This document shows positions 2,884 through 57,287 of a stretch of 64,000 bases of DNA, in pieces. The stretch's first letter is position 1, and the number at the start of each line of letters is the position of its first letter. The notes beneath the pieces are model-generated. The model did no database searches, was not told the origin of the DNA, and was given only the letters and a program-made list of their open reading frames with translations. Source of the DNA: Torpedo marmorata (Eukaryota); assembly GCA_977017645.1 (NCBI GenBank), contig OZ360230.1, forward strand, positions 14,260,001 through 14,324,000. The letters run 5' to 3'. The translations under genes were made by a program, and so were the position numbers.

Positions 2884-3785
2884 TGTTATGGACCATGACT
2901 GACCATTTGGACTGCGGACGGTTATCAGGAAGGATGAATTCTTTTGGAGTATACACTGGGGCCAGGTACTGAAAGAGTTAACTTCCCCAGCTACTTGGTG
3001 TACCCAGACAAGATACATTGTTGCACACTTCTGGTGTACCCAGACAGAGAGAGACCAGAGAGAGACAGAGACAGGCTGAACAAGATACATTTGTTTCACT
3101 TCTGCAAAAAGCAGGGGCAGATCTCTGCAAAGCAGACAGTTGTGAGTTGCAAGGCTACAGAACACAGCCAGATCCAGTTTTGTGTGCAAAAGTCAGAGAA
3201 AGACTGACAGAATAGCACATGGCCTCCTGTCTTCAGAGAAAAATTCTGAGAAAAGCAACTTCTGTGGAGAACAGGCGTGAGATCAGCGAGACTAGCTGTG
3301 AGATTCAAGCATACGCCTAAATCAGTGGTATACTGATCTGGAACTTGCAATCCTTATGAACCTACAAGAAGGGGACGTCATCAGAGAAGAAAACAAGTAT
3401 TTGTAAGCATAATCAGTCATTGTCTCTCTCCAACGTTCATTCAGAAGTACGTCTACCAGACCCAGAGCTGAATTGAAGCCTGAACTTAGAGAGTGAATCT
3501 TGTGGACTGTTTATCTTTTTTTTGACTGACTTGTTTTTTTATGACTGACCTGGGGTTTTTGGGGAAAGTTTTTCCATTTTTACATAAGGGTTGGGCACAG
3601 ACTATAATGGTCTGGGCTTTACACACACACACATACACCTTTTAGATAAGAATAGAGTTTATAGACGTTTATAGTGGGGTTAATTGTTGTGAAATTATAT
3701 GTTTACTTGTGTTTAATAAATAATGATTTCAATTTTACCCCTTTTGCATTGCGTCTTCTGTCATTGCTGGTTTGATTCTGTAACA
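2884..3785 (+). repeat. 5' LTR
   Basis: tgttatgg...tgtaaca; about 7 differences (hand count) from the copy at 7982-8882. Confidence 0.95.
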
Positions 3786-3788
3786 AAT

Positions 3789-3807
3789 TGGGGGCTCGTT
3801 GCGGGAT
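3789..3807 (+). promoter_or_regulatory. tRNA-Pro primer binding site
   Basis: tgggggctcgttgcgggat versus canonical Pro PBS TGGGGGCTCGTCCGGGAT, 3 nt after the LTR. Confidence 0.85.
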
Positions 3808-3919
3808 TTGAATCAAAATCTATCTTGGTAATTGAAGGAATCCCAGTTTGGTTTAAGGCATTCCTTTTGGTAAAGCTAATTAAAAGCTAGTGTGTGTATA
3901 ACAAAAAAAACCAGCAACA

Positions 3920-6900
3920 ATGGATGTAGAACATTTTTTGGAATCACCTGAACCTGATACTTTAAAAAAGGCGAAAAAGGAACAGTTAGTGGCTATAGCA
4001 ACAGAGTTGGGCATTGCTTCTGTAAAACCATCTATGAAAAAGGCAGAGATTGGGAGAAAAATTGTCAAGTACTATATAAAAGAAAAAAAGTTTGAGGAGA
4101 GCATGTTAGAGCAGTTTCCCAAGGATAAACCTTCTGAAAACATACAATTGGAAATAAAGAAATTGGAATTGGAACAAAATAAATTGGAGGCAGACAGGGA
4201 ACAAAAGAACAGGGAATTGGAACAAAAGAACAGGGAATTGGAGGCAGACAGGGAACAAAAGAATAGGGAATTGGAACAAAAGAAATTAGAATTGGAACAG
4301 AGGAAATTAGAATTGGAGATAGCCAGGGAACAGAAGAGATTAGACTTAGAGAATGAGGAGAAAAATAGGATATATATGCTGGAAAAGATAAAGTTGGAAA
4401 ATGAGAGGAGACAAGAAGAGCGCCAAGATCAAATTCGTCATCCTGCTGAGGGGTTTTTGGCTAGTAGAGAAGTTAGGTTGGTTCCTCCATTTGAGGAGGC
4501 AGAAATAGATAAGTACTTCCAACATTTTGAGAAAGTGGCTGTGAAATTGAAATGGCCACAAGACCAATGGTCTCTTATGTTACAAAGTGTAATTAAAGGA
4601 AAAGCTCAGCAAGCTTATTCTACTCTTACCACAGAACAAGCTGCTGATTATGAAACGGTGAAGAAGGCTATACTCCAGGCTTATGAGTTAGTTCCAGAGG
4701 CTTATAGACAGAAGTTTAGAAATCTAAAAAGATCAGCAACCCAATCTTATACAGAGTTTGCCTATGAAAAAGTTGTGTGTTTTGACAGGTGGTGCACATC
4801 TAAGGAAGTAAACAATGATTACAATCAATTGAGAGAATTGATAATAATCGAGGAGATAAAAAGGTGTGTTCCTGAGGATATTAAGGTATACTTAGATGAA
4901 AAGGAGGTGAAAACTTGGCGAGATTCAGCTAAGTTGGCAGATGGATATGCTTTAACCCACAAGCCTAAGTGGACGTCAGGTAGAATTTTCCAAAAGGTCA
5001 CGGTGGATAATCAGAAGCAAGTGGAAAGTAAATTTGGAAGTGGTGTTAAGGAAAGGGATGAAGGAAAGTGAAAAAGGGAAAACAATTCGGGTCCCATTTT
5101 CCACTACTGTAGGAAGGAAGGTCATATGATAGCAAGCTGTCCAGTGTTGAAAAAGAAGAGAGAAAAGGATGCAACACCTAATGCTTGTATTCAGAGTGAG
5201 AAGATGCATAACACCCAGGTAGGAGATAAATTTACTGACCAAGTTAAAGATGTATTTAAACCTTTTGTGACTGATGGTTTTGTTTCAGTTAAGGCAGGAT
5301 CAAAACAAGTGCCAGTGAAAATCTTGCGAGATACTGGAGCTGCTCAGTCACTTGTGTTAGATAGTGTCTTGGAATTTTGTGAAGCTACTGACACCGGTGA
5401 CATAAATTTAATAAAAGGAATTGGTGGTGAGGTTGAGTCCATTCCTTTGCACAAAATAGTATTGAACTCAGACTTGGTGGAAGGACCAGTTATAATAGGA
5501 GTGAGATCAGAGTTGCCAGTAGAAGGAGTCTCACTGTTGTTAGGCAATGACTTGGCCAAGGGTAAAGTAGTTCCTGCAGTGCCAATGACCACTAAGCCAG
5601 TCATTGATAAGTCAGAGAAAGACTCTGATATTTGTCCGGCATGTGCCATAACCAGGGCCATGTCTAAGAAAAATGTCACTGTAGAGAAGGCAGTGGAAAA
5701 TAACTTGGAAAAAGAAAAAGAAACTGATAATCAAGAAAACCTGGAAAAGGTTGAGCAATCTCCTATGTTACACCCATCCACTGATAAGACACCTAAAGGC
5801 ACAGATTTGTCACTATCCCGACAGGAGTTAATAGCAAGGCAAAAGGACGATCCGGATCTTGCTGAGGTGAGGGATAAGGTTCTCTCTGAAGAGGAGATTA
5901 AAAAGGTGCCAGTAGGGTATTATGAAAAAGATGGGGTGTTGATGAGAAAGTGGAGACCACGTGATGTTCCTGCCAATGAAGAATGGGCAGTAGTGCAGCA
6001 GGTTGTGATCCCTAAAGTATATAGGGATGAAATAATAACTTTGGCTCATAGTACAACCTTAGGTGGTCATCTTGGGGTGAAGAAAACTATAAGTAAGATA
6101 ATGAAACAATTTTATTGGCCCAGTTTGAGAAGGGAGGTTGTAAGCTTTTGCCGGGCCTGTCACACTTGTCAGGTGGTGGGTAAACCTAATCAGGGTCCCC
6201 CGGTGGCACCCTTGCAACCTATCCCTGCTTTCAGTGAGCCTTTCTCGAGAGTAATTGTGGACTGTGTTGGCCCATTGCCCAAAACCAAAGCGGGGAATGA
6301 ATATTTGTTAACAATTATGTGTGCAGCCACCAGATTTCCAGAGGCCATTCCTCTGAGAAACATAAAAGCAAAGTCAATTGTAAAGGCTATGGTAAAGTTT
6401 TTCACCTTGGTAGGTTTGCCAAGAGAAATTCAATCAGATCAGGGCAGTAATTTCATGTCAGGCGTTTTCCAACAAGTGGTTGATGGACTAGGAGTTAAAC
6501 AGATTGTATCCTCTGCGTACCATCCAGAAAGTCAAGGGGCCTTGGAGAGGTTCCATTCGACTTTGAAAACCATGATTAGAACCTATTGTTGTGAGAAGGA
6601 AAAGGATTGGGATGAGGGGGTTCATTTGTTGTTATTTGCAGCGAGGGAGTCTGTCCAAGATTCGCTTGGTTTTAGTCCATTTGAGTTAGTTTTCGGACAT
6701 GAGGTGAGAGGTCCTTTAAGATTATTAAAAGAACAGTGGATTAATCGTGATGTGCATTTAAATCTGTTAGACTATGTTTCCAAATTTAAGGATCGGTTAC
6801 ATAGGGCTTGTGAGATGGCACAGGAGAATTTAAAGGCCACTCAACAGAGAATGAAGGTTTGGTATGATCGAAAGGCGAAGATGAGGACTTTTAAACCTGG

Positions 6901-7849
6901 TGAGAACGTATTAGTTCTGTTTCCCATCCATTCAAATCATCTTAGGGCTAGATTTTCAGGACCCTATAGAGTTAAGTAAAAAATTAATGATGTCACCTAT
7001 GTTATAGAGACACCTAATCGCAGACGAGACACACAGGTCTGTCATGTGAATATGATTAAGCCATATTTTGAACAGGTGCCACACAAAGGGACTGAAAATT
7101 TACCAGAGGTACTGGTTATTGACAGGGGTAAGGAGGAGACAGATAAAACCAGTTTCAGAGAGGGTCATGGGACTGTTAATTCTCGGGGTTATGTTGTAGG
7201 ACAGGGGAATTTGGCGCCAGTAGAGGCAAAGGTTGTCGCTATTTCCGAGTTCCCTGTTCCAACTGGTAAGAAAACTCTGAGGAGGTTCCTGGGAATGATT
7301 GGCTACTACCGCAAGTTCTGTAAAAACTTTGCTGATCTTGCGCTCCCTCTCACAAATTTGCTTAGAAAGAAAGAGAAATTTGTATGGTCTACAGGTTGTC
7401 AGGAAGCATTTGTCAAATTGAAAGCCATGTTATGCCACCAACCTGTGCTTAAGTCACCTAATTTAGAACAGTCGTTTTCTTTAGCCGTGGATGCGAGCGA
7501 TGAAGCTGTGGGTGCGGTGCTGTTACAGAAGAAGAACGAAGAGGACATTGACCATCCGGTATCCTACTTCTCGAAGAAGTTCAATGATCATCAAAGGAAT
7601 TATTCAACTATAGAGAAAGAGTTGTTGGCTCTTGTGTTGGCTCTACAACATTTTGATGTGTATATCTGTACAGCTCAAAAACCACTCATAGTGTATACTG
7701 ACCATAATCCATTGGTTTTTCTTTGTAAAATGAAAAATAAGAATCGACGGTTGTTGAATTGGAGTCTAATTTTACAAGAATATAATTTGGTAATCACTCA
7801 TATAAAAGGGAGAGATAATGTAATTGCTGATTGTCTTTCTAGATGTTAA
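3920..7849 (+). pseudogene. Gag-Pol polyprotein in one frame with two in-frame stops (5069-5071, 6977-6979)
   Basis: SCAN-like region YETVKKAIL..LRELIIIEE; protease ILRDTGA; integrase HHCC plus VDCVG/SDQG/LERFH; RNase H AVDAS..YSTIEKE..YTDH..ADCLSR; the three listed ORFs share one frame. Confidence 0.92.
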
Positions 7850-7969
7850 ACTTTATCAATGAAAATAGTTCATATTTTGTATTTGTGGATGAACATTGTA
7901 GATTTTGTTTATATTCTGACACCTCACTTACTTTCCTAAATTTTGTTCTTGCAGACCAAAATTTCCTTT

Positions 7970-7981
7970 GAGGGTGGGAGG
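7970..7981 (+). other. Polypurine tract
   Basis: gagggtgggagg immediately before the 3' LTR. Confidence 0.85.
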
Positions 7982-8882
7982 TGTTATGGACCATGACTGA
8001 CCATTTGGACTGCGGACGGTTAGCAGGAAGGATGAATTCTTTTGGAGTATACACTGGGGCCAGGTACTGAAAGAGTTAACTTCCCCAGCTACTTGGTGTA
8101 CCCAGACAAGATACATTGTTGCACACTTCTGGTGTACCCAGACAGAGAGAGACCAGAGAGAGACAGAGACAGGCTGAACAAGATACATTTGTTTCACTTC
8201 TGCAAAAAGCAGGGGCAGATCTCTGCAAAGCAGACAGTTGTGAGTTGCAAGGCTACAGAACACAGCCAGATCCAGTTTTGTGTGCAAAAGTCAGAGAAAG
8301 ACTGACAGAATAGCACATGGCCTCCTGTCTCAGAGAACAATTCTGAGAAAAGCAACTTCTGTGGAGAACAGGCGTGAGATCAGCGAGACTAGCTGTGAGA
8401 TTCAAGCATACGCCTAAATCAGTGGTATACTGATCTGGAACTTGCAATCCTTATGAACCTACAAGAAGGGGACGTCATCAGAGAAGAAAACAAGTATTTG
8501 TAAGCATAATCAGTCATTGTCTCTCTCCAACGTTCATTCAGAAGTACTTCTACCAGACCCAGAGCTGAATTGAAGCCTGAACTTAGAGAGTGAATCTTGT
8601 GGACTGTTTATCTTTTTTTTGACTGACTTGTTTTTTTATGACTGACCTGGGGTTTTTGGGGAAAGTTTTTCCATTTTTACATAAGGGTTGGGCACAGACT
8701 GTAATGGTCTGGGCTTTACACACACACACATACACCTTTTAGATAAGAATAGAGTTTATAGACGTTTATAGTGGGGTTAATTGTTGTGAAATTATATGTT
8801 TACTTGTGTTTAATAAATAATAATTTCAATTTTACCCCTTTTGCATTGCGTCTTCTGTCGTTGCTGGTTTGATTCTGTAACA
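7982..8882 (+). repeat. 3' LTR
   Basis: Direct repeat of 2884-3785. Confidence 0.95.
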
Positions 8883-32317: not shown

Positions 32318-35300
32318 TGTTACAAACTCAAACCAGCAATGACAGAAGACGCAATGCAAAAGGGGTAAAATTGAAATTTATATTTATTAAAGACAATCAA
32401 ACATATAATTTCACAACAATCAACCCCACTATAAACATCTAAAAACACTATTCTTATCTAAAGAGTGTGTGTGTGTGTGTGTGTAAAGCCCAGACCATTA
32501 CAGTCTGTGCCCAACCCTCAAGAAAAAAAATAGAAATCCTTCCCCAAAACCCCAGGTCAGTCATAAAAATAAGTCAGTCCCAAAAATACAGTCCACAAAA
32601 ATCACTCACTATGTTCATGGCACGAAGGACTTCTTAATGAACATTGGAGAGAGAGACAATAACTGTTTAAGCTTACGAATGCTTGGCCTGCTTTTCTTCC
32701 CTGATAACTTTCCCTTTTGGTAGGTGCACGAGGACTGCGATTCCAAATCAGTATACCGCTGATTGAGGCGTATACTTGGATTTCACAGCCTGTCTTGCTG
32801 ATCTCACGCCTGTTCTCCACGAAAGTTGCTTTATCTCAGTATTTTGCTGATACAGGAGGCCATGTGCTATTCTCCCAGCCTTTCTCACTGGAATGCACAA
32901 GCCTGTTTCTGATGTTGTTGCTTCAGCCTTTTGCAACTCCAGACTGAATGCTTTTTGCAGCGGTTTGCACCTGCTTTTGCAAAAGTGCAACAAAGTATCT
33001 TTCCACAGCCTGTCTCTCTCTCTCTCTGAGTACGCCAAGTCCTGGGCAAGTTAACTCTTTCAGTACCTGGTCCCAGTGTGTACTCCAAAAGACTTCATCC
33101 TTCCTGCTGACCGTCTGCAGTCCAAATGGTCAGTCATGGTCCATAACACCTCCCACCCACAAAGAAAATTTTGGTCTGCAAGAACAACATTTTGGAAATT
33201 AATTGAGGTGTCACAATATAAACAAAACCCACAATGTTCATCCACAAACACAAAAATATGAACTCTTTTCATTTATAAAGTTTAGCATCTAAAAAGACAA
33301 TCAGCGATTACATTATCTTTCCCTTTTATATGTGTTATCATTAAATCGTATTCTTGCAAAATTGGACTCCAATTTAACAACCGTCGATTCTTATTTTTCA
33401 TTTTACAAAAAAACCAATGGATTATGGTCAGTATATACTATGAATGGTTTTTGAGCTGTACAGATATACACATCAAAGTGTTGTAGAGCCAACACAAGAG
33501 CAAACAACTCTTTTTCTATGGTTGAATAATTCCTGTGATGATCATTGTACTTCTTCAAGAAGTAGGATACCGGATGGTCAATGTCCTCTTCGTTCTTCCT
33601 CTGTAACAGCACCACACCCACAGCTTCATCGCTGGCATCCACGGCTAAAGAAAATGGCATTTCTAAATCAGATGACTTAAGCACTGGTTGGTGGCATAAA
33701 ATGGCTTTCAATTTGACAAATGCTTCCTGACATCCTGTTGACCATACAAATTTTTCTCCCTTTCTAAGCAAATTTGTGAGAGGGAGCGCAAGATCTGCAA
33801 AGTTTCTACAGAACCTGCGGTAGTAGCCAATCATTCCCAGGAACCTCCTCAGAGTTTTCTTACCAGTTGGAACAGTGAACTCGGAAATAGTCACAACCTT
33901 GGCCTCTACTGGCGCAAACATAACCCAAATAAGTAACAGTTCCATGACCCTCTCTGAAACTGGTTTTATCTGTCTCCTCTTTACCCCGGTCGATAACCAG
34001 CACCTCTGGTAAATGTTCAGTCTCTTTGTGCGGCACCTGTTCAAAATATGGCTTAATCATATTCACTTGTCTGCGATTAGGTGTTTCTATGACAGAGGGT
34101 GACCTCATTAATTTTTGACTTAACTCTATAGGGTCCTGAAAATCTAGCCCTAAGAGGATTTGAATGTGTGGGAAACAGAACTAATACATTCTCACCAGGT
34201 TTAAAAGTTCTCATCTTGGCCTTTCGATCATACCAAACCTTCATTCTCTGTTGAGTGGTCTTTAAAGTCTCCTTTGCCATCTCACAAGCTTTATGCAACC
34301 GATCCTTAAATTTGGAAACATAATCCAACAGATTTAAACACACATCACTATTAATCCACTGTTCTTTTAATAACCTTAAAGGACCTCTCACCTCATGTCC
34401 GAAAACTAACTCGAATGGACTAAAACCAAGTGATTCTTGGACAGAGTCCCTCGCTGCAAATAACAACAAATGAACCCCCTCATCCTAATCCTTTTCCTTC
34501 TCACAACAATAAGTTCTAATCATGTTTTTCAAAGTCGAATGGAACCTCTCCAAGGCCCCTTGACTTTCTGGATGGTACGCAGAGGATACAATCTGTATAA
34601 TTCCCAGTCTATCAACCACTTGTTGGAATACGCCTTGCTGTGTGTTTTGTTACAGAAGGTGCCACTGCCTGACATGAAATTACTACCCTGATCTGATTGA
34701 AGTTCCCTTGGCAAACTTACCAAGGTGAAAAGCTTTACCATAGCCTTTAAAATTGCCTTTGCTTTAATGTTTCTCAGAGGAATTGCCTCTGGAAATTTGG
34801 TGGCTGCACACATAATTGTTAACAAATATTCATTCCCCGCTTTGGTTTTGGGCAATGGGCCAACACAGTCCACAATTACTCTCGAGAAAGGCTCACTGAA
34901 AGCAGGGATAGGTTGCAAGGGTGCCACCAGGGGACCCTGATTAGGTTTACTCACCACATGACAAGTGTGACAGGCCCGGCAAAAGCTTACAACCTCCCTT
35001 CTCAAACTGGGCCAATAAAATTGTTTAATTATCTTCAGTATAGTTTTCTTCACCCCAAGGTGACAACCTAAGGGTGTGCTCTGAGCCAAAGCTATTATTT
35101 CATACCTATATACTTTAGGGATCACAACCTTCTGCACCACTGCCCATTCTTCAGTGGCAGGAACATCACATGGTCTCCACTTTCTCATCAACACCCCATC
35201 TTTTTCATAATAACCCACTGGCACCTTCTTAATCTCCTCTTCAGAGAGAACATTATCCCTCACCTCAGCAAGATCAGGATCCTCCTTTTGCCTTGCTATT

Positions 35301-37372
35301 AGCTCCTGTCGGGATAGTGACAAATCAGTGACTTTAGGTGTCTTATCAGTGTATGGGTGTAACACAGGAGATTGCTCAACCTTTTCCAGGTGTTTTTGAT
35401 TATCACTGACTTTTTCTTTCACCAATTTATTTTCCACTGCCTGCTCTACAGTGACATTTTTCTTAGACATGGCCCTGGTTATGGCACATGCCGGATAAAT
35501 ATCAGAGTCCTTCTCTGACTTATCAATGACTGGCTTAGAGGTCATTCGCACTGCAGGAACTACTTTATCCTCAGCCAAGTCATTGCCTAGCAACAGTGAG
35601 ACTCCTTCTACTGGCAAATCTGATCTCACTCCTATTATAACAGGTCCTTCCACCAAGTCTGAGTCCAACACTATTTTGTGCAAAGGAATGGACTCAACAT
35701 CACCCCCAATTCCTTTAACTAAATTCATTTCACCGGTGTCAGTGGCTTCACAAAATTCCAGGACACTATCTAACACAAGTGACTGAGCAGCTCCAGTATC
35801 TCGTAAGATTTTCACTGGAACTTGCTTTGATCCGACCTTAAATAAAATAAAACCATCAGTCACAAAAGGTTTAAATACATCCCTAACTTTGTCAGTAAAT
35901 TTGTCTCCTTCCTGGGTGTTACGCCTCTTCTCACTCTGAATACAAGCATTAGGTGTTGCATCCTTTTCTCTCTTCTTTTTCAACACTGGACAGCTTGCTA
36001 GCATATAACCACCCTTCCTATAGTAGTAGCAAATGGGACCCGAAGGGTTTTCCTTTTTCCGCTTCCCTTCATCTCTTTCCTTAACACCACTTCCAAATTT
36101 ACTTTCCATTTGCTTGGGATTATCCACAGTGCCCTTTTGGAAAATTCTGCCTGACGTCCACTTAGGCTTGTGGGTTAAAGCATATTCATCTGCTAACTTA
36201 GCTGAATTTTGCCAAGTTTTCACCTCCTTTTCATCTAAGTATGCCTTAATATCCTCAGGAACACACCTTTTTATCTCCTCAATTGGTATCAATTCTCTCA
36301 ATTGATTGTAATCATTCTTTACTGCCTTTAATGTGCACCACCTGTCAAAACCCACAACCTTTTCATAGGCAAACTCTGTGTAAGATTGGGTTGCTGATCT
36401 TTTAAAATTTCTAAACTTCTGTCTATAAGCCTCTGGAACTAACTCATAAGCCTGGAGTATAGCCTTTTTCACCGTTTCATAATCAGCAGCTTGCTCCGTG
36501 ATAAGAGTAGAATAAGCTTGCTGAGCTTTTCCTTTAATTACACTTTGTAACATAAGAGACCATTGGTCTTGTGGCCATTTTAATTTCACAGCCACCTTTT
36601 CAAATCAACCCCACTATAAACGTATATAAACACTATTCTTATCTAAAGAGTGTGTGTGTGTGTGTGTGTGTGGGTAAAGCTCAAACCATTACAGTCTGTG
36701 CCCAACCCTCAAGAAAAAAGTAGAAAACCTTCCCCAAAACCGCAGGTCAGTCATAAAAATAAGTCAGTCCCAAAAATACAGTCCACAAAAATCACTCTCT
36801 ATGTTCAGGGTCCAAATTCAGCTCTGTGCGCTGGCACAAAAGACTTCTTAATGAACGTTGGAGAGAGAGACAATGACTGTTTAAGCTTACGAATGCTTGG
36901 CCTGCTTTTCTTCCAATGGCTTTTCCTTTTGGTAGGTGCACGAGGATTGCGATTCCAAATCAGTATACCACTGATTGAGGCATGTACTTGGATCTCACAG
37001 CCTGTCTCGCTGATCTCACGCCTGTTCTCCACGAAAGTTGCTTTATCTCAGTATTTTGCTGATACAGGAGGCCATGTGCTATTCTCCCAGTCTTTCTCAA
37101 TGGAATGCACAAGCCTGTTTCTGATGTTGTTGTTTCATCCTTTTGCAACTCCAAACTGAATGCTTTTTTCAGCGGTTTGCACCTGCTTTTGCAAAAGTGC
37201 AACAAATTACCTTTCCACAGCCCGTCTCTCTCTCTATGTGTCTCTCTCTCTGAGCACAGCCAGTCCTGGGCAAGTTAACTCTTTCAGTACCTGGTCCCAG
37301 TGTGTACTCCAAAAGACTTCATCTTTCCTGCTGACCTTCCGCAGTCCAAATGGTCAGTCATGGTCCATAACA
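32318..37372 (-). mobile_element. Second Gmr1-type Gypsy copy (different LTR subfamily), RT core missing, with a deletion of U5/PBS/5' gag
   Basis: TSD attg (32314-32317, 37373-37376); 3' LTR 32318-33148; partial 5' LTR about 36603-37372. Confidence 0.93.
33282..36602 (-). pseudogene. Gag(SCAN)-PR-IN-RH, frameshifted
   Basis: Highly similar to 3920-7849 at protein level. Confidence 0.9.
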
Positions 37373-45904: not shown

Positions 45905-46205
45905 TGATGAGCCCATCAATAACTCCAAAAGACTAGAAGTTACACAAGAACTGAAAGGCTTTTATTAGCAAAAGAATGGAGCTACATTCGTGCTGGTGAT
46001 CTGTCCCGGACTGGGGGAGGAGCCGTGGCACAATGGCCTTTATTCAAGGGGGTTTGTGGGAGGAGCCACCGGGACAGTCAGCAGGGCATGTCCAGACTTA
46101 TCGCCTAGCCCACAATCCATATACAGTGGTTTACCACATTCACCCTTCCTTTTTAAAAGAGTCCAGCGGGGTGAAGTGTATAATAACATTTACAAGAGAT
46201 TAACA

Positions 46206-47252
46206 TTACAGATCGAGTCGATCAGGCGGTCGAGTTTGCCCTTGTGATCGGCGCAGTACTTGTGGTGATGGGGCAGGTGGCGGAGCTACCTCCTGCCTGA
46301 TCTGGGGTACTGCCACGTCTGGTGATCGCGAAAATGCTGGTGCGTGTGGTGTCGTGCTGGAATTGAGTGGTGCCTCAATGGTAGGCAAGGGGGTAACCGT
46401 AACAAGGGGGTGTTCGAGGGCAGGTTCCAGTGCTCCTGCGGGCGCCAGGTCCCGGATGGAGACCGTGTCTTCCCGCCCATCAGGAAAACCCACGTAGGCG
46501 TACTGGGGGTTTGCATGTAATAATTGGACCCTCTCGACCATTGGGGCGTATTTATTGCTCCTGACATGTTTGCGGAGCAGCACTGGCCCTGGGGACGTCA
46601 GCCATGCTGGTAGGGTAGTCCCGGTGGTCGACTTCCTGGGGAAGGAAAAGAGTCTCTCATGAGGTGTAGCATTGGTGGATGTACATAGCAGGGATCGGAT
46701 AGAGTGGAGTGCCTCGGGAAGGACTTCTTGCCAGCGGGAGACTGATAATCCCTTAGACCTGAGGGCTAAGAGTGTGGCCTTCCAGACCGTGGCGTTCTCC
46801 CTTTCTACTTGTCTGTTACCCCGTGGATTATAGCTCGTGGTCCTGCTAGTGGCGATTCCCTTGGCCAGCAGATATTGTCGCAGCTCGTCACTCATAAATG
46901 AGGACACCCGGTCGCTATGGATATAGCAGGGGTATCCAAACAACGTGAAGAGTTTGCGGAAGGCCTTTGTGACTGAGGTGGTCGAGGTATCGGGGCAGGG
47001 AATGGCGAAAGGGAACCGCAAGTACTCATCAATAACGTTGAGGAAGTACACATTGCGGTCAGTGGAGAGAAGTGGGCCCTTAAAGTCGACGCTGAGTCAC
47101 TCAAATGGGCGGGTTGCTTTTATTAACTGTGCCCTGTCAGGACGGTAGAAGTGCGGTTTGCACTCTGCGCAGACTTGGCAGCTGCTGGTCATCGTCCTGA
47201 CCTATTCCAGGGAGTACGGTAGATTACGGGCTTTCACAAAGTAAAAAAGCCT
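46206..47252 (-). pseudogene. Gypsy integrase (portion 3' of the BEL insertion)
   Basis: CQVCAEC, VDFKGP, IHSDR, QVEREN; contains stops. Confidence 0.9.
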
Positions 47253-50200
47253 TGTAGCGACTTCAACCAATAAAAATAGTCGCTTGGAGGCTAAGTTAGG
47301 CGTTTGTCTGCGACGCGTTTTCATTTATTTCCAATACAAGTTCAGTTGTATTTAAATTCTTTATTTTTAACACACAAAACTTGTAACCATCTTCTTTAAT
47401 GTTCTATGAAAAGTCTTTAAGTAACGTTCTATGTGGCTGATTCTTAATAACAAAATATTCATATAAAAGTTAACGTGGCTTAACGATGCTTAACGATCTT
47501 TAACGATGTTCAACGATATTCAACATAGTTCAACGATCTTTAACGTCTTGATGATGCTTAACTTTCTTTAACGCTGGCTTGACGTGTTTTAAAGGTGTTT
47601 TAAACGTTCGACAGAAATTGTCGACACCTAACTTACCCTCCTCAGATTTCCAACTGCCCATGCACGCGGGGGAACCTATATTTAAATGTACGAAGATCCC
47701 ACCCGCGCATGCTCCGTTGTGCACGCGCTGGCCCTGGCTCCAACCGTTCGCTGCCAGCACTGAGCCAAGTGCACGTGTCGACCCAGTCCATGGCGCATGC
47801 GCACTGGCGGATGCGCCAGCCCCGGCTGAAGCCGCTGCCGCTGAACCAACCGCGCATGCGCCGCCACGTTCCGGCTCCGTAAGTGGTGCCGGCCCTCGCG
47901 CATGCGGCCTACGGGAAGAGGCCTACGCACCCTGGGACACCGCCAGTGCCCGAGGCCAAAACAGCAGGTAAGTACTGAGCCTATGGCTCTTACACCGGCC
48001 CCTAATTATTATAATGAGATGTAACGTCTCTAATAATAATTACATAACTATAATCTATTATATATAACAATTAACTACATAACATTCGAACGTTACACAG
48101 GTCTCTTTTCATCTTCACTTCCACTCTGAAGTCCGTATAGTGGGCAAAGTACAAAACACAAAAATCCAACAAAATAAAGTCAGTTTGTACTTATTAAAGT
48201 TCCTCCGTCTACTGTAGAATCCATGAGCCAAACCGTTGACCAGCAAACCTCAGATCTTCCTCAGACAGAATAGACACAGCTTTCCTTTTGAATTTAACAC
48301 AAGGCACTTCTTCAACATGTCGTTTCACTTTATTTCTTTTTTCAGTATTCCACTTCTCATGTGAAGAATTTAAACTCTTAGAACTGGAATTTGAATATTT
48401 ATTTGATCCTTTCGATTTTAAACAGGTCTGTTTAACCACTCTGGTTTCTATTGCCTTTTCCTGCAATTCCAAATCCAATTTTGCAACTTTCAATTCGGTC
48501 TCAGTTCTTTCCGAGAAATTAATAATTTGATCTGAAGTCAAAATATCATGTGATACGTTGATATTTCTATTGTCAATCCTGTTGCGACAAACTTGAAATT
48601 TTTTAATTTCTTCATCTTGCTTGTTACATTTCTGCAATGCAATATCACATTCTTTCTGCATTGTTAATTGTTTTGTGTTATTAATCAATAACTTGTTCTC
48701 TTTCAAAACATTAATCTCTTCCTCCAACCTTTTACATTTTGATAATGCTGAATCTCTTTCCTCGATAACTGTATTCATTTCTTCAGCAGTTATTCTTTTC
48801 TTCTGCTTTCTGACTTTGCGAGTTTTACTTACAATTAAATCTTTCTGTTTACTGTTTTCTTGATTATCTAATATTTCCAATTCCCCTTTCAACATTTTGT
48901 TCTCTGAATTCAATTGCATTAAATTATCATTCACATTATTCTTTATTCCATCAGTACAGTTTTCTGTGTTTTCCAGGTTTACATCACATTGTAATATTTC
49001 TTCATTAGCTTTGTCTGTTGTATTCTCTGAACTACAAAATTTACATTCAGATTTGTTTTCAGTCACTTGTTTTATTCCTGTATTGGATTCAATTACACAT
49101 GAATGATCAATAGTATTATTTGCAACATTTTCTAATACTTCACTTTCATCCATTTCTGACGAAATTAATTCCTTCAGTGTTGTTTTAAATACCATTGATT
49201 TATTTTCACATTGATCTGTTTTCTTTTCTTCAAAAGTGATTTTCTTATTCACAGTTTTTTGCTCTTCGCTTAACTCTTCAACTTTCACAACCGAAATTCT
49301 ATTAATATTTATCGCTAACTGTTCCTGAGCAATATCATTATTTCTTTCCAGTGGTCCATTGATTGTCCAACCAAACTTGGTTCTAATAGCGTAAGGTCCA
49401 TTCCTTTTACTCTCTATTACTTCTTTCGGTTCCAAAACCTTTGGCACATCTGAACCAATCAGCATTTCTATCTCAGAATTAATTTCAGGTAAATAAACCT
49501 TCCACAGATAAGCTAAATGATGGATATCCCTTTGATGAGGAATATTTCCTTCATTCACAGGCATAGTCTTCTGAGTATATACACTTGGAAGATCACAAAT
49601 TTTTTTGTCATCCAATCCAGCAACCTCTAAGCCTGAAACAATGTTAGTTTCAACAACCTTTTCTTGTCCCATTGTTCTTAACATAATTCTTGATCTTCTT
49701 CCTTGAATATTAAGTTTATTCATTAGTCCTTCCGTGCAAAAGGATGCAGTGCTGCCTGGGTCTAAAAATGCATATGTTTTTACTATTACATCCCCTTTCT
49801 TGGCCTTGACTTGTACAGGCACTATTGAAAGTTTGAAGTTATCCACACCGGCCCCAGTAAGACCACTTGTCTGAACCGAGGTTATAACATTATTTTCTGT
49901 TGTTTCCTTTGTTTCTGTTTGCTCTTTTCCCAATTCCTTGTTTCTGTTATGGATATGCAAAATTCTAGGATGTTTCAAATTGCATATGTTACAATTAATT
50001 CGCTTCTCGCAGTTTTTACTGATGTGTCCTTTACACAAACAGCTAAAACATATTCCATTTTCCTTTAAGAAAGCGATCTTTTCCTTATGTTCCTTCTTTT
50101 CCAATCGTAAACACATTTCCAAAGCATGTCCACCTTTACAGAACAAACAACTTTTTTCATTAGGCAAACTTTCCTTTTCCTTATTTACTTTGTCATTTTC

Positions 50201-53183
50201 TTTACTTATAACTTGCACATTAGTAGCAAAAGTACTCCTTTTCACTTTCGAACTAGACTGTGTGTTAGACTTCTTTACATCTTTGCCCATTGAATTATCT
50301 CTGGTATTTCCATATAGTGGATCTGTTTCAACGTACACCCGTCGTTCAAGAAAATTTACCAAATCCTTTAAGGTAATTTTTCGACCGAAATCTACTTGTA
50401 AATCACAAGCCAAATTTCTCCATCTATCCCATAACTTGTAAGGTAATTTTTCTAAGATGATTCGCATATTACTATGCACATCCAGCTCACGAATATTATC
50501 GATTTCTTCCATAGCATTACAACATCCTCGTAAAAACAGAGTATATTCTTGCAGAGCCTTTACATCATTTTGTTTTATTGATGTCCAATTAAGAGCTTTA
50601 TCCATATAAGCTAAAGCAATTCGATGCTTGTTGCCAAAATATTGTTCCAATAAAGCCTTAGCTTTGTCTAATCCTCTTTCTGAAGACATTTGTTTACAAC
50701 TCTTTACCAGTTCTTTTGGATGTCCCTTTGTAAACATTTCCAAATAATAAAGACATTCATCACGATCTTGGCATTTATCTTCAATATTGCGTTTGAAAGA
50801 TCTCATAAATGATTGATATTGAAGTGGATCACCATCAAAAGTTTGTATCTCTTTCTTGGGTAAAGAAGAGAGAGACTGTAACTGAAACAATGATGCAGCA
50901 ATTTCATTTTGTCTTTCCTTGGATGACAATACATTGCTCTGTTCACCCTCTCTTGTTGCATGCAATGTATCTGGAAACCTCACTGGTGTCGTTTCTTCCA
51001 TATTTCTGATGCTTGACTCATATAACAAAGAAGCTGCTTCGTTCGACCGAACCCAAGCCGCAGCTTTGCTTTCAGATGTTATCATTGGTACATGTGACTC
51101 GATACCAATATGCTCTTGAAAGGTTTATCCTTGTATATGTAAGTTTTGTATCCTTGGTTCTAAAATATCTATCCTTTTCGTTGGTTTCTTTTCCTGTGAC
51201 TCCTTTTTTAAATATGACCTTTTATTATCAGACAATTTAGATAATTTACTGCTAGCACCAGATACCATTGAGCCTTCTATTGCTTTCTTTTCTGCCTTGG
51301 CAATAGCAATGTTTGCTTCTAGCTCCTGCTGTTCTTTTCTCTGCCTTAGTTGCTCCTTCTCTTGTCTTAGCTGCTTCATTAGCTACTTCTCATTTTGTCT
51401 TAGCTGCTCCTTTAGCTGTTTCTCATTTTGTCTTAGCTGCTCCTCCTCTTGTCTTAGCTGCTCCTTTAGCTGCTCCTCCTTTTGTCTTAGCTGCTCCTTT
51501 AGCTGCTCCTCCTTTTGTCTTAGCTGCTCCTCCTCTTCTTCCAAAATATACTTATCCTTAAGCGTTTTTTGTTGTGCAAGAAGAGCGGCCAATCTAACAT
51601 CAATCTTTATACGTGACGATGCAGAACCTGAAGTACGAGAAACTCTGGAGCTCGAACCAGAACTTCTTTTGCTTCTCCTGCTTTCAGCATTTGAGACACT
51701 GTCACTTGCTTGTATTTCGTCCTGCAGTTCATATGTTGTCTTCATACTTACCTCTTTATCCAATTCAAATTGTATATCCTTTGCATCTTTAACCACTTCA
51801 ATTTCTTTATCATTTGTTGACACAATTTCAGCCATTTCCAAGTTATCTTCTTGTTCATTTAATGAAGCTGCCTCTTCATCCTTTGCCTGCTTCAATCTTT
51901 CGATAAGAACCCTTTTATTTCCTCTTATGTCCTTTTTCAGTCACTTCAATTCTTCTTTAATATCCAAAACCTTCATGTCTTCAATACGTTGGTCCTCAAC
52001 AGCAACATCAGCGGTTGCTGCGCCAGCTGCTGATATATCAGTAGCTGCTGTATCAGTGGCTGCTGCGGCCATTTTACTCGTCTTGTTCCTCTTTCCTTCA
52101 AGCATACACAATACCAGCCAAACAACAGTCCCCAATGGACCAGCGGCAGCAATTCCAATCTGTGTTCTTACTTACTAAAGATACACAGAAGGAGTCCACA
52201 GACTTATGCCAACCACTTCAAATGACTGTAATGTGCTGCAATCCACAAACGAGTTTTTTTTATCTTCTTTCCTTCTATTTTCTGTTCCAAACAGCCAGCT
52301 CTTTATTGACTATGTAGATTGCGGTGACTTCGTTCCAACGTTGGTCACCTGGAGGCTAAGTGTGGTCCTTATGTATCTGGAAACCTCACTGACCGTCCTA
52401 ATATCTCCTTCCTATTCTATTTTCCGTTTCAACAACAATTTCTGTCGACTTATTTTAGCGACTTCAACCAATAAAAATAGTCGCTTGGAGGCTAAGTTAG
52501 GCGTTTGTCTGCGACGCGTTTTCATTTATTTCCAATACAAGTTCAGTTGTATTTAAATTCTTTATTTTTAACACACAAAACTTGTAACCATCTTCTTTAA
52601 TGTTCTATGAAAAGTCTTTAAGTAACGTTCTATGTGGCTGATTCTTAATAACAAAATATTCATATAAAAGTTAACGTGGCTTAACGATGCTTAAAGATGT
52701 TCAACGATATTCAACATAGTTCAACGATCTTTAACGTCTTGATGATGCTTAACTTTCTTTAACGTTGGCTTGATGTGTTTTAAAGGTGTTTTAAACGGTC
52801 GACAGAAATTGTCGACACCTAACTTACCCTCCTCAGATTTCCAACTGCCCATGCACGCGGGGGAACCTATATTTAAATGTACGAAGATCCCACCCGCGCA
52901 TGCTCCGTTGTGCACACGCTGGCCCCGGCTCCAACCGTTCGCTGCCAGCACTGAGCCAAGTGCACGTGTCGACCCAGTCCATGGCGCATGCGCACTGGCG
53001 GACACGCCAGCCCCGGCTGAAGCCGCTGCCGCTGAACCAACCGCGCATGCGCCGCCACGTTCCGGCTCCGTAAGCGGTGCCAGCCCTCACGTATGCGGCC
53101 TACGGGAAGAGGCCTACGCACCCTGGGACACCGCCAGTGCCCGAGGCCAAAACAGCAGGTAAGTACTGAGCCTATGGCTCTTA
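47253..53183 (-). mobile_element. BEL/Pao LTR element, non-autonomous (no RT, RH or IN)
   Basis: LTRs of about 740 bp at 47253-47994 and 52454-53183; PPT aggggccgg; inserted in the Gypsy IN zinc finger (HPGVT|RLFYF). Confidence 0.92.
48209..52135 (-). pseudogene. BEL Gag (3 zinc knuckles) - aspartic protease - novel coiled-coil tail with MIPOL1-like segment; one frame, three stops in the N-terminal part
   Basis: FDGDPLQY, CLFC..H..C, CFSC..H..C, CNIC..H..H, AFLDPGS, GWTING; the four listed ORFs share one frame; the last 958 codons are open. Confidence 0.85.
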
Positions 53184-53185
53184 AT

Positions 53186-55099
53186 GGTGACTCCAGGGTG
53201 GCAGAGGTCACAGTGGAGGGCATATAACCGGTCCATCTGTGCGCTAGCACACGTCCCCCGGGATAGAGCGTCGGAGGGCTCATTGAGCTTCCCGGGCCGG
53301 TACATTATATCATAGTTATAGGTGGACAGTTCGATTCTCCACCTCAGGATTTTATCATTTTTGATTTTACCCCGCTGTTGGCTGCTGAACATGAATGCGA
53401 CTGAGCGTTGGTCAGTCAGCAGAGTAAACCTTTTTCCGGCGAGATAGTGCCTCCAGTGCCTGATAGCTTCCACTATGGCTTGGGCCTCTTTCTCCACCGC
53501 TGAGTGCCGAATTTCTGGGCCTTGAAGGGTACGGGAGAAGAACGCCACCGGTCTTCCCGCCTGGTTGAGGGTAGCAGCCAGTGCGAAGTCGGACGCGTCA
53601 CTCTCTACTTGAAAGGGAGTGGACTCGTCCACAGCGTGCATTGCTGCTCTAGCAATGTCCCCTTTTATGAGGCTGAAAGCCTCACGTGCCTCCGTTGTAA
53701 GGGGAAAAGTGGTGGACTTGACTAGGGGGCGGGCCTTGTCTGCATAATTAGGGACCCATTGAGCATAGTACGAAAAGAAGCCCAAGCACCTTTTGAGGGC
53801 TTTGAGGGTGTGGGGAAGCGGTAGTTCCAACAGGGGGCGCATGCGGTCGGGGTCGGGGCCGATGACCCCGTTCTTCACAACACACCCCAGGATAGCGAGT
53901 CGGGTGGTTCCGAACACGAACTTGTCCTTGTTATAAGTTAGATTAAGTGCTTTGGCCGCCTGGAGGAACTTCCGAAGGTTGTTGTCGTGGTCCTGGCGGT
54001 CGTGACCGCAGATGGTGATATTATCTAAGTACGGGAAAGTGGCCTTTAAATTGCATTGGTCCACCATCCTGTCCATCTCCCTCTGGAAGACGGATACCCC
54101 ATTTGTAACCCCAAAGGGGACGCGCAGGAAATGATAGAGCCTGCCGTCCGCCTCGAAGGCGGTGTAAGTGCGGTCCTCCCGGCGAATGGGGAGCTGGTGG
54201 TAGGCAGATTTGAGCTCTATGGTGGAGAAGAGCTTATATTGAGCTATCTGATTTACCATATCTGCAATGCGTGGTACGGGGTACGCGTCAAGCTGCGTGA
54301 ACCTATTGATGGTCTGACTATAATCTACCACCATCTTGTTTTTGTCCCCGTTCTTGACGACAACCACCTGGGCCCTCCAGGGACTTGTGCTCGGTTCAAT
54401 GATCCCCTCCCCAAGCAATCGCCTCACCTCTGACTTAATTAATGCCCTGTCCCCTGCGCTATATCTCCTGCTTTTGGTCGCCACAGGTTTACAATCAGGG
54501 GTCAGGTTGGCGAATAGCGATGGGGGCGGGATCCTGAGGGTGGATAGACCGCAAGTAGTGTGGGGTGTGTTTTTAAGGAATTGGTGATTACCGACAGTAA
54601 TCGGTGGGAGGGGCCCGTCATACTCCATAGTCACACTTTGGAGGTGACTCTGGAAGTCGAGCCCTAGTAGTACAGGTGCACACAGTCGGGGCATGACCAA
54701 TAGCGTGAAGTCCCGGTATTCCGTGCCCTGTACCACTATCGTCGCTACACAACCCCCCCGGATGTCTGTTGTGTGCGACCCGGAAGCCATGGCAACCCTC
54801 TGGCTTACCGACTGTGTCGTGAGACCACATCGCTGTACCGTGTCTGGGTGGATGAAGCTCTCTGTGCTGCCTGTGTCGAACAGGCAGTTTGTCCTGTGTC
54901 CCTCGACCAGAATGTCCATCATTGACCTCGCTAGTTGATGGGGTGCACTCTGGTCGAGTGCGACTGACGCCAACGTTGGGTCGCTGTCGTGCTCCGACAT
55001 CGCGATGGGGTGCCAGTTGTTCCGGGGTGGCGGCACCAATGGGTCGCTGTCTTGATCTGACGTCGCGATGGGGTGCCTGCTGTCCCGAGATAGTGGCAC
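53186..55099 (-). pseudogene. Gypsy pol: protease, RT, RNase H, start of IN
   Basis: LFDTGS, PFGVTN, YLDN, ESDAS, VEKEA, LTDQ, SDALSR. Confidence 0.93.
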
Positions 55100-55329
55100 C
55101 CTGTGTCAGCTCGCTGGTGTGGAATAAAATGGCCGCTCCCATGACTCGCACGTGTTGGCGGCAGGTAGGTAAGATGGCGGCGCCGGAAGTGACGAAACCC
55201 AAGATGGCTGCCCCCATACCTCGCACGTGTTGGCCGCGGCGGCGGGTAGGTAAGATGGCGGCGTCGGAAGTGACGACACACAAGATGGCCGCCCCTGAGT
55301 CTCGCACGCGGCACTGCTCGAACCCGCTC

Positions 55330-55943
55330 GCGGCTTTGATCAGCAGACCTTAGCGAAGTGGCCTTTCTTCCCGCAGCTGGAGCAGGTCGCTTCTCAGGCC
55401 GGGCAACGTTTTCGGGGGTGCTTCTCAAGCCCGCAGAAATAGCATTTCTCGGGCTCGCGGCTGATGGCGGCAGTGGTTGATTCACTAGCATGGTGGGTGG
55501 TCGGCATCCACGGAGCCTGCTGGAGATCGCACGCTTGGATAGCATCCGAGTTCTGTAGCGCGGCCTCCAGCGTGTCGGCCAGTTCGACGGCGGAACGGAA
55601 GGTGAGGTCAGCTTGTTCCAGCAGCCGCTGGCGCACATATACTGACCTGGTCCCTGTGACAAAAGCGTCTCTCCCTAGGAGCTCTGCGTGCTGTTCAGCC
55701 GTCAGTCCCCGGCAGTCGCACGCCCGCACGAGCGTTTGTATGGCCCGTACGAACTCCGCGTTCGACTCCCCGAGCCGCTGCTGCCGCATCGCTAGCCTGT
55801 GCCTTGCATTTTTCGGCGTCTTCTTGCACCTTGATCTCCCCCAGGAACGATTCGAAACAGACTAGCCAGCGTTCGAAGGCATTGCCAGCGTCCGGTGTTT
55901 GTGGGTCGATGTCCAGTTTGTCGGGTCTCTAGATGTTCTCCAT
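55330..55943 (-). pseudogene. Gypsy gag, disrupted
   Basis: ATG at 55943 (MENI*RPDKLDIDP); knuckles CYFCGLEKHPRKRC and CSSCGKKGHFAKVC. Confidence 0.8.
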
Positions 55944-57287
55944 GTTTACAGTTTTGCTAATAAAATTGATGAGCCCATCAATGACTCCAAAAGACTAGAA
56001 GTTACACAAGAACTGAAAGGCTTTTATTAGCAAAAGAATGGAGCTACATTCGTGCTGGTGATCTGTCCCGGACTGGGGGAGGAGCCGTGGCACAATGGCC
56101 TTTATTCAAGGGGGTTTGTGGGAGGAGCCACCGGGACAGTCAGCAGGGCATGTCCAGACTTATCGCCTAGCCCACAATCCATATACAGTGGTTTACCACA
56201 CTACCCTACCTATATCTTCTTAAAAGTCTATTTGGAGTTTACACCTCCAAATTGTTTGTCACCTGCAAATTTGGGAACCCAAGTCCAAGTCCTTAGTATA
56301 GATTAAACGTCCATTAATCACTGAAGAGCATTTCTGTACATTTTATGCCAGTTTGAAAATCAACCTTTCACTATATTCCATTTCCTCTCACTACAATTTT
56401 CCAGCCATGTTATCACAGTTCCTTTTACACCATGGACTTCAAGCATGATGATGTCAACTATTCGGCAATTTATCAAACGCCTTTATGAAGTTTATGTAAT
56501 CATATTTCCCTCACAACTCTCTCTATTAACTTTAACAATCCATTTTGGGTTTCCTGAATCAACTCAAACTCATCCAAGGGGCTGTTAATTTTATCCCTGA
56601 TTATTGTTTCTTGAACTTTCCCATAATGAAATTAAATTTATTAACTTGAGTTTAACTCTTTTTGAACAAGCATGTACCATTTCAAATTTCCAGTTTTCAG
56701 ATTCTTCTCCTGAATATTCAGATGTTTGAAAGATTACAAGGTGTGACTTGGCCTTTCTAATACCAACTTTCCAATCTTTTCAGCCCATCCAAAATCTTAA
56801 CCACAATAGTTTTCAATAACAAGTTTAAGATTATTTTCATGTTGTGGTTTGAAATCAAGACACTTTGCCTGCATAAGATTTTAAAAGTGAATTTGTCAAT
56901 CTGAAAAACCACCAAATGTCATGGAGGAAATAAAGTAACAGTCAAAAAGCGGGAAGGAACCCTGCGGGTCATGCAGCATCCATGGAAGTCAATGTTTCGA
57001 GCCTGAACACTTCATCAGGATGACTCCTGGAGGAAAAGCAGCTTTACTGTTAATTTTGGAAGCTATTTTTGTCCAACATTGCCCTCTTGTGCAAATCTGA
57101 CAAATTGCAACAGTCCCACAAAGATGGACTGCAAGTTGATCCATGATGGAAAAGTGTTGCAAGTTTCTGAGAACAAAGGAATTTACTACCAATGATGTTA
57201 GTACATAGTTACTTGTTCTCTCAATAGTATGCTATTTAAGTGACATAATATTGACAGTTTCAACAACATTTCTCGATAACAAGGTCT

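Follow-up and report, generated by a model that had tools for sequence, protein, structure and literature searches.

The window studied here, a stretch of 64,000 nucleotides from the ray Torpedo marmorata, contains an LTR element with the Gag and protease of a BEL/Pao retrotransposon, in which the reading frame runs on, at the point where reverse transcriptase (RT) should begin, into a tail of a different nature. The question raised by this locus is which sequence has taken the place of pol, how it was acquired, and why its frame has been kept open. A first-pass annotation proposed the capture of an intronless host mRNA, resembling MIPOL1, as a Gag-protease fusion analogous to oncogene transduction. 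In the present analysis, pol has been replaced in frame by pieces of three host genes: BRCA1, MIPOL1 (across a back-splice junction) and Elongin A. As a complete explanation, to which a probability of about 0.7 can be given, it is proposed that template switching would have joined host pieces inside a BEL/Pao element, that helpers would drive its spread, and that the tail would be kept as filler.

Anatomy of the element

The features of the window copy are collected in Table 1. A Pfam scan of this copy detected the Gag domain DUF1759 (PF03564) at 25.9 bits, the cut-off being 25.4, and gave a weak aspartyl-protease match, while the three Cys-His motifs were read from the Gag translation, as in BEL/Pao Gag. 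The same scan matched no RT, RNase H or integrase domain in the element and nothing at all in the tail, the frame of which is open, so the in-frame replacement of pol after Gag and protease is confirmed. The uninterrupted frame covers 48209-51124 (-), and the longer one extends from the ATG at 52072 to the stop at 48209. However, in-frame stops are present at 51941, 51383 and 51125, in the Gag N-terminus, and because of these three upstream stops the Gag-tail fusion is broken in the window copy.

Table 1. Features of the BEL/Pao-derived element in the window (positions counted from the first nucleotide of the window)
Feature	Position	Strand	Remarks
Whole element, LTR to LTR	47253-53185	-	BEL/Pao, internal pol absent
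5' LTR, 732 nt	52454..53185	-	First bases unlike the TG start of the family
Gag-protease part	49264..52072	-	Frame from ATG 52072; LDPGS protease motif, three Cys-His knuckles
Gag DUF1759	about 50417-50839	-	Pfam profile
BRCA1-derived piece	48835..49263	-	Two spliced host exons, normal order
MIPOL1 late exons 6, 7 and 8 (our own numbering), spliced	48582..48842	-	
Back-splice-type junction, MIPOL1 exon 8 end to exon 2 start	48581..48582	-	
MIPOL1 early exons 2 and 3, after the late exons	48428..48581	-	81-nt in-frame deletion
Elongin A-derived piece	48219..48437	-	Two exons remaining of five
Integrase C-terminal tip and start of 3' leader	48167..48218	-	
Stop TAG of the tail frame	48209-48211	-	Five codons ahead of the helper-type stop
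Polypurine tract	47995..48003	-	Identical to that of the helper
3' LTR, 742 nt	47253..47994	-	TG...CA
Recipient Gypsy element	45905..56200	-	Identical LTRs, own 5-bp duplication

The recipient Gypsy element has LTRs that are 100% identical over 234 nt, in agreement with the proposed insertion into a young Gypsy. The window copy has neither a target-site duplication nor a 5' TG. At its insertion point (53176-53185 / 47248-47252) the Gypsy frame runs on across the inserted sequence. The LTR pair of the inserted element differs more (12 mismatches in 738) than that of the surrounding Gypsy (0/234).

The tail derives from three host genes

In a protein search with the tail, of about 360 aa (best E 2.8e-17), the top matches were MIPOL1 of rays and sharks; among the 120 matches listed, of 182 in total, all belonged to the MIPOL1 Pfam family and those carrying a name were nearly all MIPOL1. 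These matches spanned 16-39% of the window tail, a second match being out of order. Thus, the resemblance to MIPOL1 noticed earlier is gene-specific, but it is confined to about 48428-48842, the remainder being derived from BRCA1 (about 48835-49263) and Elongin A (48219-48437).

The three sources were recognised through older relatives of the window element. When a ray MIPOL1 was used to search the genome (6.2 Gb) to which the window belongs, many loci presented residues about 340-473 followed directly by residues 210-300, and these scrambled loci are the older relatives. Ahead of MIPOL1 they match a BRCA1 homolog (E 6e-42), and behind it they contain the Pfam domain Elongin_A (E 1e-15), which is found in older copies only, having been deleted in the young subfamilies. 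The most complete older copies encode Gag, protease and a pol linker of about 50-60 aa, followed by four BRCA1 exons, by MIPOL1 exons 6 (part), 7, 8, 2, 3 and the start of 4, and, after a linker of 18-21 nt, by five Elongin A exons and the tip of integrase. They share about 90-98% DNA identity with the host exons, every intron having been removed, with three exon joins in BRCA1, five in MIPOL1, counting the back-splice, and four in Elongin A, and each piece is in its native reading frame. Generic coiled-coil similarity is ruled out by this DNA identity together with the gene-specific matches. Each donor is present as a single host locus: BRCA1 on contig C61, MIPOL1 on C40, where it extends over about 320 kb, and Elongin A on C41. 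Over the stretches searched, identity between the host proteins and their Narcine bancroftii counterparts is 82-96%.

The order of the pieces is almost invariable, BRCA1 preceding MIPOL1 in 29/29 non-host loci found by BRCA1 DNA and MIPOL1 preceding Elongin A in 29/30 loci found by Elongin_A. No clear one- or two-gene intermediate was seen among these partly overlapping sets of 29 and 30 top-hit loci, a type of sampling that rare intermediates could escape, and no annotated chimeric protein was found in the protein collection searched. At the BRCA1|MIPOL1 and Elongin A|integrase switch points, short runs that may be shared are visible by eye, the parent sequences having diverged since.

In older copies (e.g., L019:2135-2153), the linker that separates MIPOL1 from Elongin A, and that the window copy has lost by deletion, resembles the very start of an older LTR (18/21 to L168). 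Since this join falls at the terminal TG of the LTR, an integrase-made or strong-stop junction is suggested, and the mosaic may have been assembled in more than one step.

Two further candidates were discarded. A BRCA1 gene model that merely contains the element is ruled out for the captured part, because the host locus is single and has canonical splice sites. A second Elongin A-like gene with introns (L123, G000:C25:175.32-175.34 Mb) is rejected as donor, being more distant (73-77% to the captured exon). The public BRCA1 model of Narcine apparently starts, by eye, with retrotransposon Gag-like sequence (P0122, residues 1-180), which is probably an annotation error.

A back-splice junction in the MIPOL1 piece

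In the host, MIPOL1 exon 8 is followed by a GT donor and, 206 kb upstream, exon 2 is preceded by an AG acceptor; it is exactly these two exon ends that are joined in the element. A 28-nt probe for this junction was found in 29/29 older loci (≤5 mismatches), chosen as MIPOL1 matches independently of the junction, whereas a linear exon 8-9 probe was found in 0/29. In young copies the back-splice probe was recovered in 6/37 (≤9 mismatches), because of their divergence, and the linear probe in 0/37; their exon order rests on exon alignments, which give the same scrambled order in all 21 window-type copies aligned. Exons 2-8 total 780 nt, a whole number of codons, and no MIPOL1 exon outside this range has been captured in the copies examined. 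A present-day tandem duplication of MIPOL1 exons is rejected: over about 320 kb, the host locus has a single copy of every exon, all in normal order.

Taking into account that the MIPOL1 piece carries a back-splice join, its source was very probably a circular RNA rather than a linear mRNA, this being the simplest origin of an exon 8-to-2 join. The alternative is that a linear RNA was scrambled by RT jumping at the AG|C identity of 3 nt, by trans-splicing, or by a past genomic exon duplication; AG followed by C is indeed common to both junctions, and Dong et al. give further routes to non-colinear junctions (PMC4897178). However, such an origin is improbable given that the join coincides precisely with a splice donor and acceptor, that nothing beyond exons 2-8 was captured, and that every host exon is single and ordered. 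The first-pass annotation had suggested the capture of intronless host mRNA, and in this the loss of introns holds, as captured MIPOL1 spans exon joins including the exon 8-to-2 one; nevertheless, the donors are three and the MIPOL1 source was probably circular.

Family size and mobility

A search with the MIPOL1-like DNA of the window gave 988 first-look candidates, and the 40 scored were all 99-100% identical. Both LTRs were found in 18 of 29 window-type loci examined; 13 of these 18 have an exact 5-bp target duplication, one has 4 of 5 bases, and four, the window copy among them, have none. Their LTR pairs differ at 3-20 positions. TG...CA LTRs, the polypurine tract and the 5-bp duplication are of BEL/Pao type at the level of the family, the window copy itself deviating from this. 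A full open frame from start to end is present in 1 of 20 copies read.

Copy number was estimated from two samples. Five tails in forty 10-kb stretches at fixed positions correspond to about 78,000 copies (95% Poisson 25,000-181,000), and four tails in 395 kb of host-gene regions to about 70,000 (95% Poisson 32,000-134,000). Chimera-like parts make up 4.4-4.8% of the sampled bases, helper gag-protease included, and with 1.1-1.6 copy-equivalents of helper pol per sample the chimeras exceed helper pol by about 4 to 1. The tail is also contained in sequencing runs labelled as other organisms, which may be mixed samples, covering 30/30 bins in three runs at high depth and 27/30 in a fourth at low depth. 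A single-copy accident or an assembly artefact is ruled out by the copy counts, the genome samples and this coverage.

The element is therefore a family of non-autonomous BEL/Pao LTR retrotransposons, non-autonomous because the gag-protease-RT-RNase H-integrase frame is absent from it and present in related helpers. The mobility and multiplicity that had been supposed for it are thus corroborated by exact target duplications and by tens of thousands of estimated copies.

Helpers and exchange with the chimera

The genome contains 6,618 candidates for Pao RNase H, several of them in frames above 2,000 aa. Among six long-frame candidates that were retrieved, five encode 2018-2134 aa (about 2050 aa) in one frame, and two have 100% identical LTRs; one helper scanned with Pfam contains RT, Peptidase_A17, integrase and DUF5641, Pao RNase H being also present in the helpers. 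Over a gag-protease core of 1,587 nt, window-type chimeras are 94% identical to helpers and 77% to older chimeras, the identity between element and helpers in gag-protease being 90-94%. In a gag-protease tree (FastTree, rooted on a distant helper, with 10 of 27 window-type rows after dropping those under 55% coverage), helpers interleave with young chimeras. A helper-type integrase end of about 180 nt (76-96%) is present in ten young chimeras and in 0/11 older chimeric loci tested.

These alignments indicate that chimera and intact helpers have exchanged gag-protease and 3' ends. Because the BRCA1-to-MIPOL1 junction is common to 29/29 loci, it would be a single tail that has been handed on by repeated recombination with helpers, a process that would imply joint packaging of chimera and helper. 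The spread of the family is very probably driven by helpers, from which RT and integrase would come in trans, and Gag and protease would still be the chimera's own.

Some features of individual elements can be added. The LTR of the window subfamily (47253-47994) has very little in common with those of helpers (about 70% over 120 nt), and the LTRs of other young chimeras are helper-like (up to 89-96%). The window LTR bears three GCGCATGCG-type motifs, which we take to be NRF1-like. Helper Gag opens with a SAP domain (L155 ORF, residues 45-76), and the matching stretch is also found in the window element.

Selection on the tail

Codon columns from 34 older, 21 window-type and 9 other young copies were compared, with host exons as coordinates; the expectations for stops and dN/dS came from a 12-rate substitution model in which C>A and G>T were kept apart. 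From old to young copies, the tail (315 codons) accumulated 17.5% nucleotide change; it was halved through in-frame deletions and drifted toward A/T, its GC content passing from 0.39 to 0.30.

Along the replicating lineage no stop was gained in the tail, against 12.0 expected; the model over-predicts on control (private) variants (66 stops vs 100 expected, dN/dS 0.87-1.01), which makes about 8 the more realistic figure. First-position C>T changes occurred at 1 of 18 stop-yielding codons, that one becoming Trp, and at 10 of 27 elsewhere (Fisher p 0.016). The shared deletions that reach 24 nt or more, namely of 24, 45, 81, 87, 111, 120, 195 and 291 nt, are in frame in 8/8 cases, two of them only after correcting a private 1-nt gap in the reference copy. 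Since private indels, in frame in 32/90 overall, are already so in 23/41 at 4 nt or more, the deletion test weakens to about p 0.01; these counts leave out events private to the reference or located at the 5' edge of the alignment. Two 1-nt shifts are each common to 3-4 copies, and stops in young tails are confined to the last codons, at a distance of about 200-420 nt from the polypurine tract. The idea that the fusion stayed open despite divergence is thereby upheld for the tail, but not for the gag of the window copy, with its three stops.

The borrowed amino acids show a different picture. Tail dN/dS is 0.92 (0.7-1.2) from old to young, or 0.81, 1.09 and 0.79 in the BRCA1, MIPOL1 and Elongin A pieces, and gag-protease gives 0.48 over the same interval (p 7e-6). 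Thus, the open frame has been selected, and most of the borrowed amino acids have not. No retained host-protein function is seen under selection, and the analogy with oncogene transduction is weak, because dN/dS is near 1 for the borrowed residues and young subfamilies have lost the Elongin A domain; selection for the frame without the sequence likewise argues against an oncogene-like function.

The main rival to a filler role is a property-level role of the tail protein, as a working module (a charged coiled-coil Gag spacer or a decoy for a host partner) whose general properties, not its exact sequence, are selected. Hints of protein-level constraint are given by the shared variants of the young window subfamily, with dN/dS 0.32 on 19 codons (p 0.017), and by a shortage of aromatic residues (8 vs 17.8 simulated). 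Moreover, the frame is kept, about 350 aa having survived 17% divergence, deletions have affected the MIPOL1 coiled-coil core least, and no tail-less gag-protease element occurs among six sampled gag-protease loci (five chimeras and one helper). However, this proposal is rather unlikely in view of the near-neutral dN/dS of all three pieces, amino-acid changes no more conservative than neutral (BLOSUM62, p 0.28), the deletion of the sole Pfam domain, Elongin_A, and a tail end that differs among subfamilies.

The drift of the tail along the lineage is strand-biased (C>T 0.42, C>A 0.29, G>A 0.26, G>T 0.03), which suggests loss of C during replication; a similar fall in GC is found in gag-protease.

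A proposed mechanism

It is proposed that host RNAs were packaged in the particle, one of them probably a 780-nt circular MIPOL1 RNA, and that RT, by template switching, would have joined the pieces into the frame of the element, as in the capture model of Tan et al., so far as the accessible text sets it out (PMC5131818). The resulting chimera would then spread using the RT and integrase of helpers. The presence of the back-splice inside the frame of an LTR element, between other captured mRNAs, points to packaging and template switching.

With regard to the permanence of the tail, retroviral RNAs with a long 3' UTR after the gag stop attract nonsense-mediated decay, according to the accessible text of PMC5580461. 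In BEL/Pao helpers, a single long frame would avoid this fate, and in the chimera the tail would act as translated filler that lets ribosomes proceed until about 200-420 nt remain before the polypurine tract, which would probably spare the RNA from decay, the protease likely cutting the tail off afterwards. From the analysis of selection, we lean slightly towards such a protective role. The fullest version, in which a circular RNA was copied into a BEL/Pao frame and the resulting chimera outnumbers its helper, occupies about 4% of a 6.2-Gb genome, is renewed by helpers and gains in replication from translation of its tail, is put forward as tentative.

A camouflage effect, by which silencing the element would also hit BRCA1 or Elongin A, so that small-RNA control would have failed against the chimera and its numbers would have overtaken those of the helper, as described for plant elements in the available part of PMC13317346, would suit early copies about 3% from the host genes and the excess of chimeras over helper pol, yet it is very improbable, since young tails differ from the host exons by about 18%, which makes cross-silencing weak now while young families are abundant, and it leaves the open frame unexplained.

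These proposals give the family a wider interest. It can be regarded as a genomic fossil of a germ-line circular RNA, and, with its tens of thousands of copies serving as replicates, it offers a natural experiment in which selection for an open frame is separable from selection for protein sequence. In practical terms, its copies overwhelm any search for MIPOL1 or Elongin A homologues in the T. marmorata genome and could be taken for genes or circRNA reads.

Relation to known systems

Acutely transforming retroviruses carry gag-onc fusions, with intron-less host sequence in place of pol, and are replication-defective and helper-dependent. Unlike them, the element described here has three donors, no envelope was seen in it, and host protein function has apparently not been kept.

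In the LTR-mediated retrocopies of Tan et al. (2016), as given in the accessible text, spliced partial mRNA replaces part of the internal frame, with shared short sequence at switch points, multi-gene chimeras and secondary non-autonomous spread, and one mosquito case has a flanking BEL element (PMC5131818). Like those, the present element holds intron-less host sequence in place of an internal frame. However, the cases in that text are young or low-copy and the older ones have mostly lost their frame (14/21), whereas here the chimera is a major repeat family with a frame open through 17% divergence; the main text of Tan et al. does not use the word circRNA (PMC5131818). Maize Bs1 is an LTR element whose single hybrid frame combines parts of three unlinked host genes, with switch points common to all copies; in the available portions of the two sources it has 1-5 copies and one piece out of frame, and is a proposed host gene (PMC5131818, PMC13317346). 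The present family, in contrast, is found in a vertebrate, with tens of thousands of estimated copies, three native frames and one back-spliced piece.

Mouse circRFWD2 pseudogenes have an inherited non-colinear exon junction, with 33 copies near LTR sequence (Dong et al. 2016, PMC4897178). As in these circRNA-derived pseudogenes, the non-colinear join lies here at the exact donor and acceptor, with no exons beyond the putative circle. Nevertheless, the circRFWD2 copies were called pseudogenes and the mechanism of circRNA retrotransposition was left open (PMC4897178), whereas the junction described here belongs to the coding frame of a replicating element that is itself defined and whose helper has been identified.

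Thus, three-gene capture (Bs1), multi-gene LTR retrocopies and circRNA pseudogenes near LTRs were known already, and their in-frame, high-copy combination did not turn up in the literature search. The literature search, which left most subscription papers and repeat databases outside its scope, found no report of a BRCA1-MIPOL1-Elongin A family and no back-splice junction inside the frame of a replicating element, although the supplements of Tan et al. and Dong et al. could hold a small comparable case.

Other elements in the window

The window also contains two Gypsy-type copies, at 2884-8735 (+) and 32708-37372 (-), in which a SCAN-like Gag, protease and integrase are followed by RNase H. 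No match to the RT core was found in either copy, and this integrase-first Gypsy-type element is probably non-autonomous as well.
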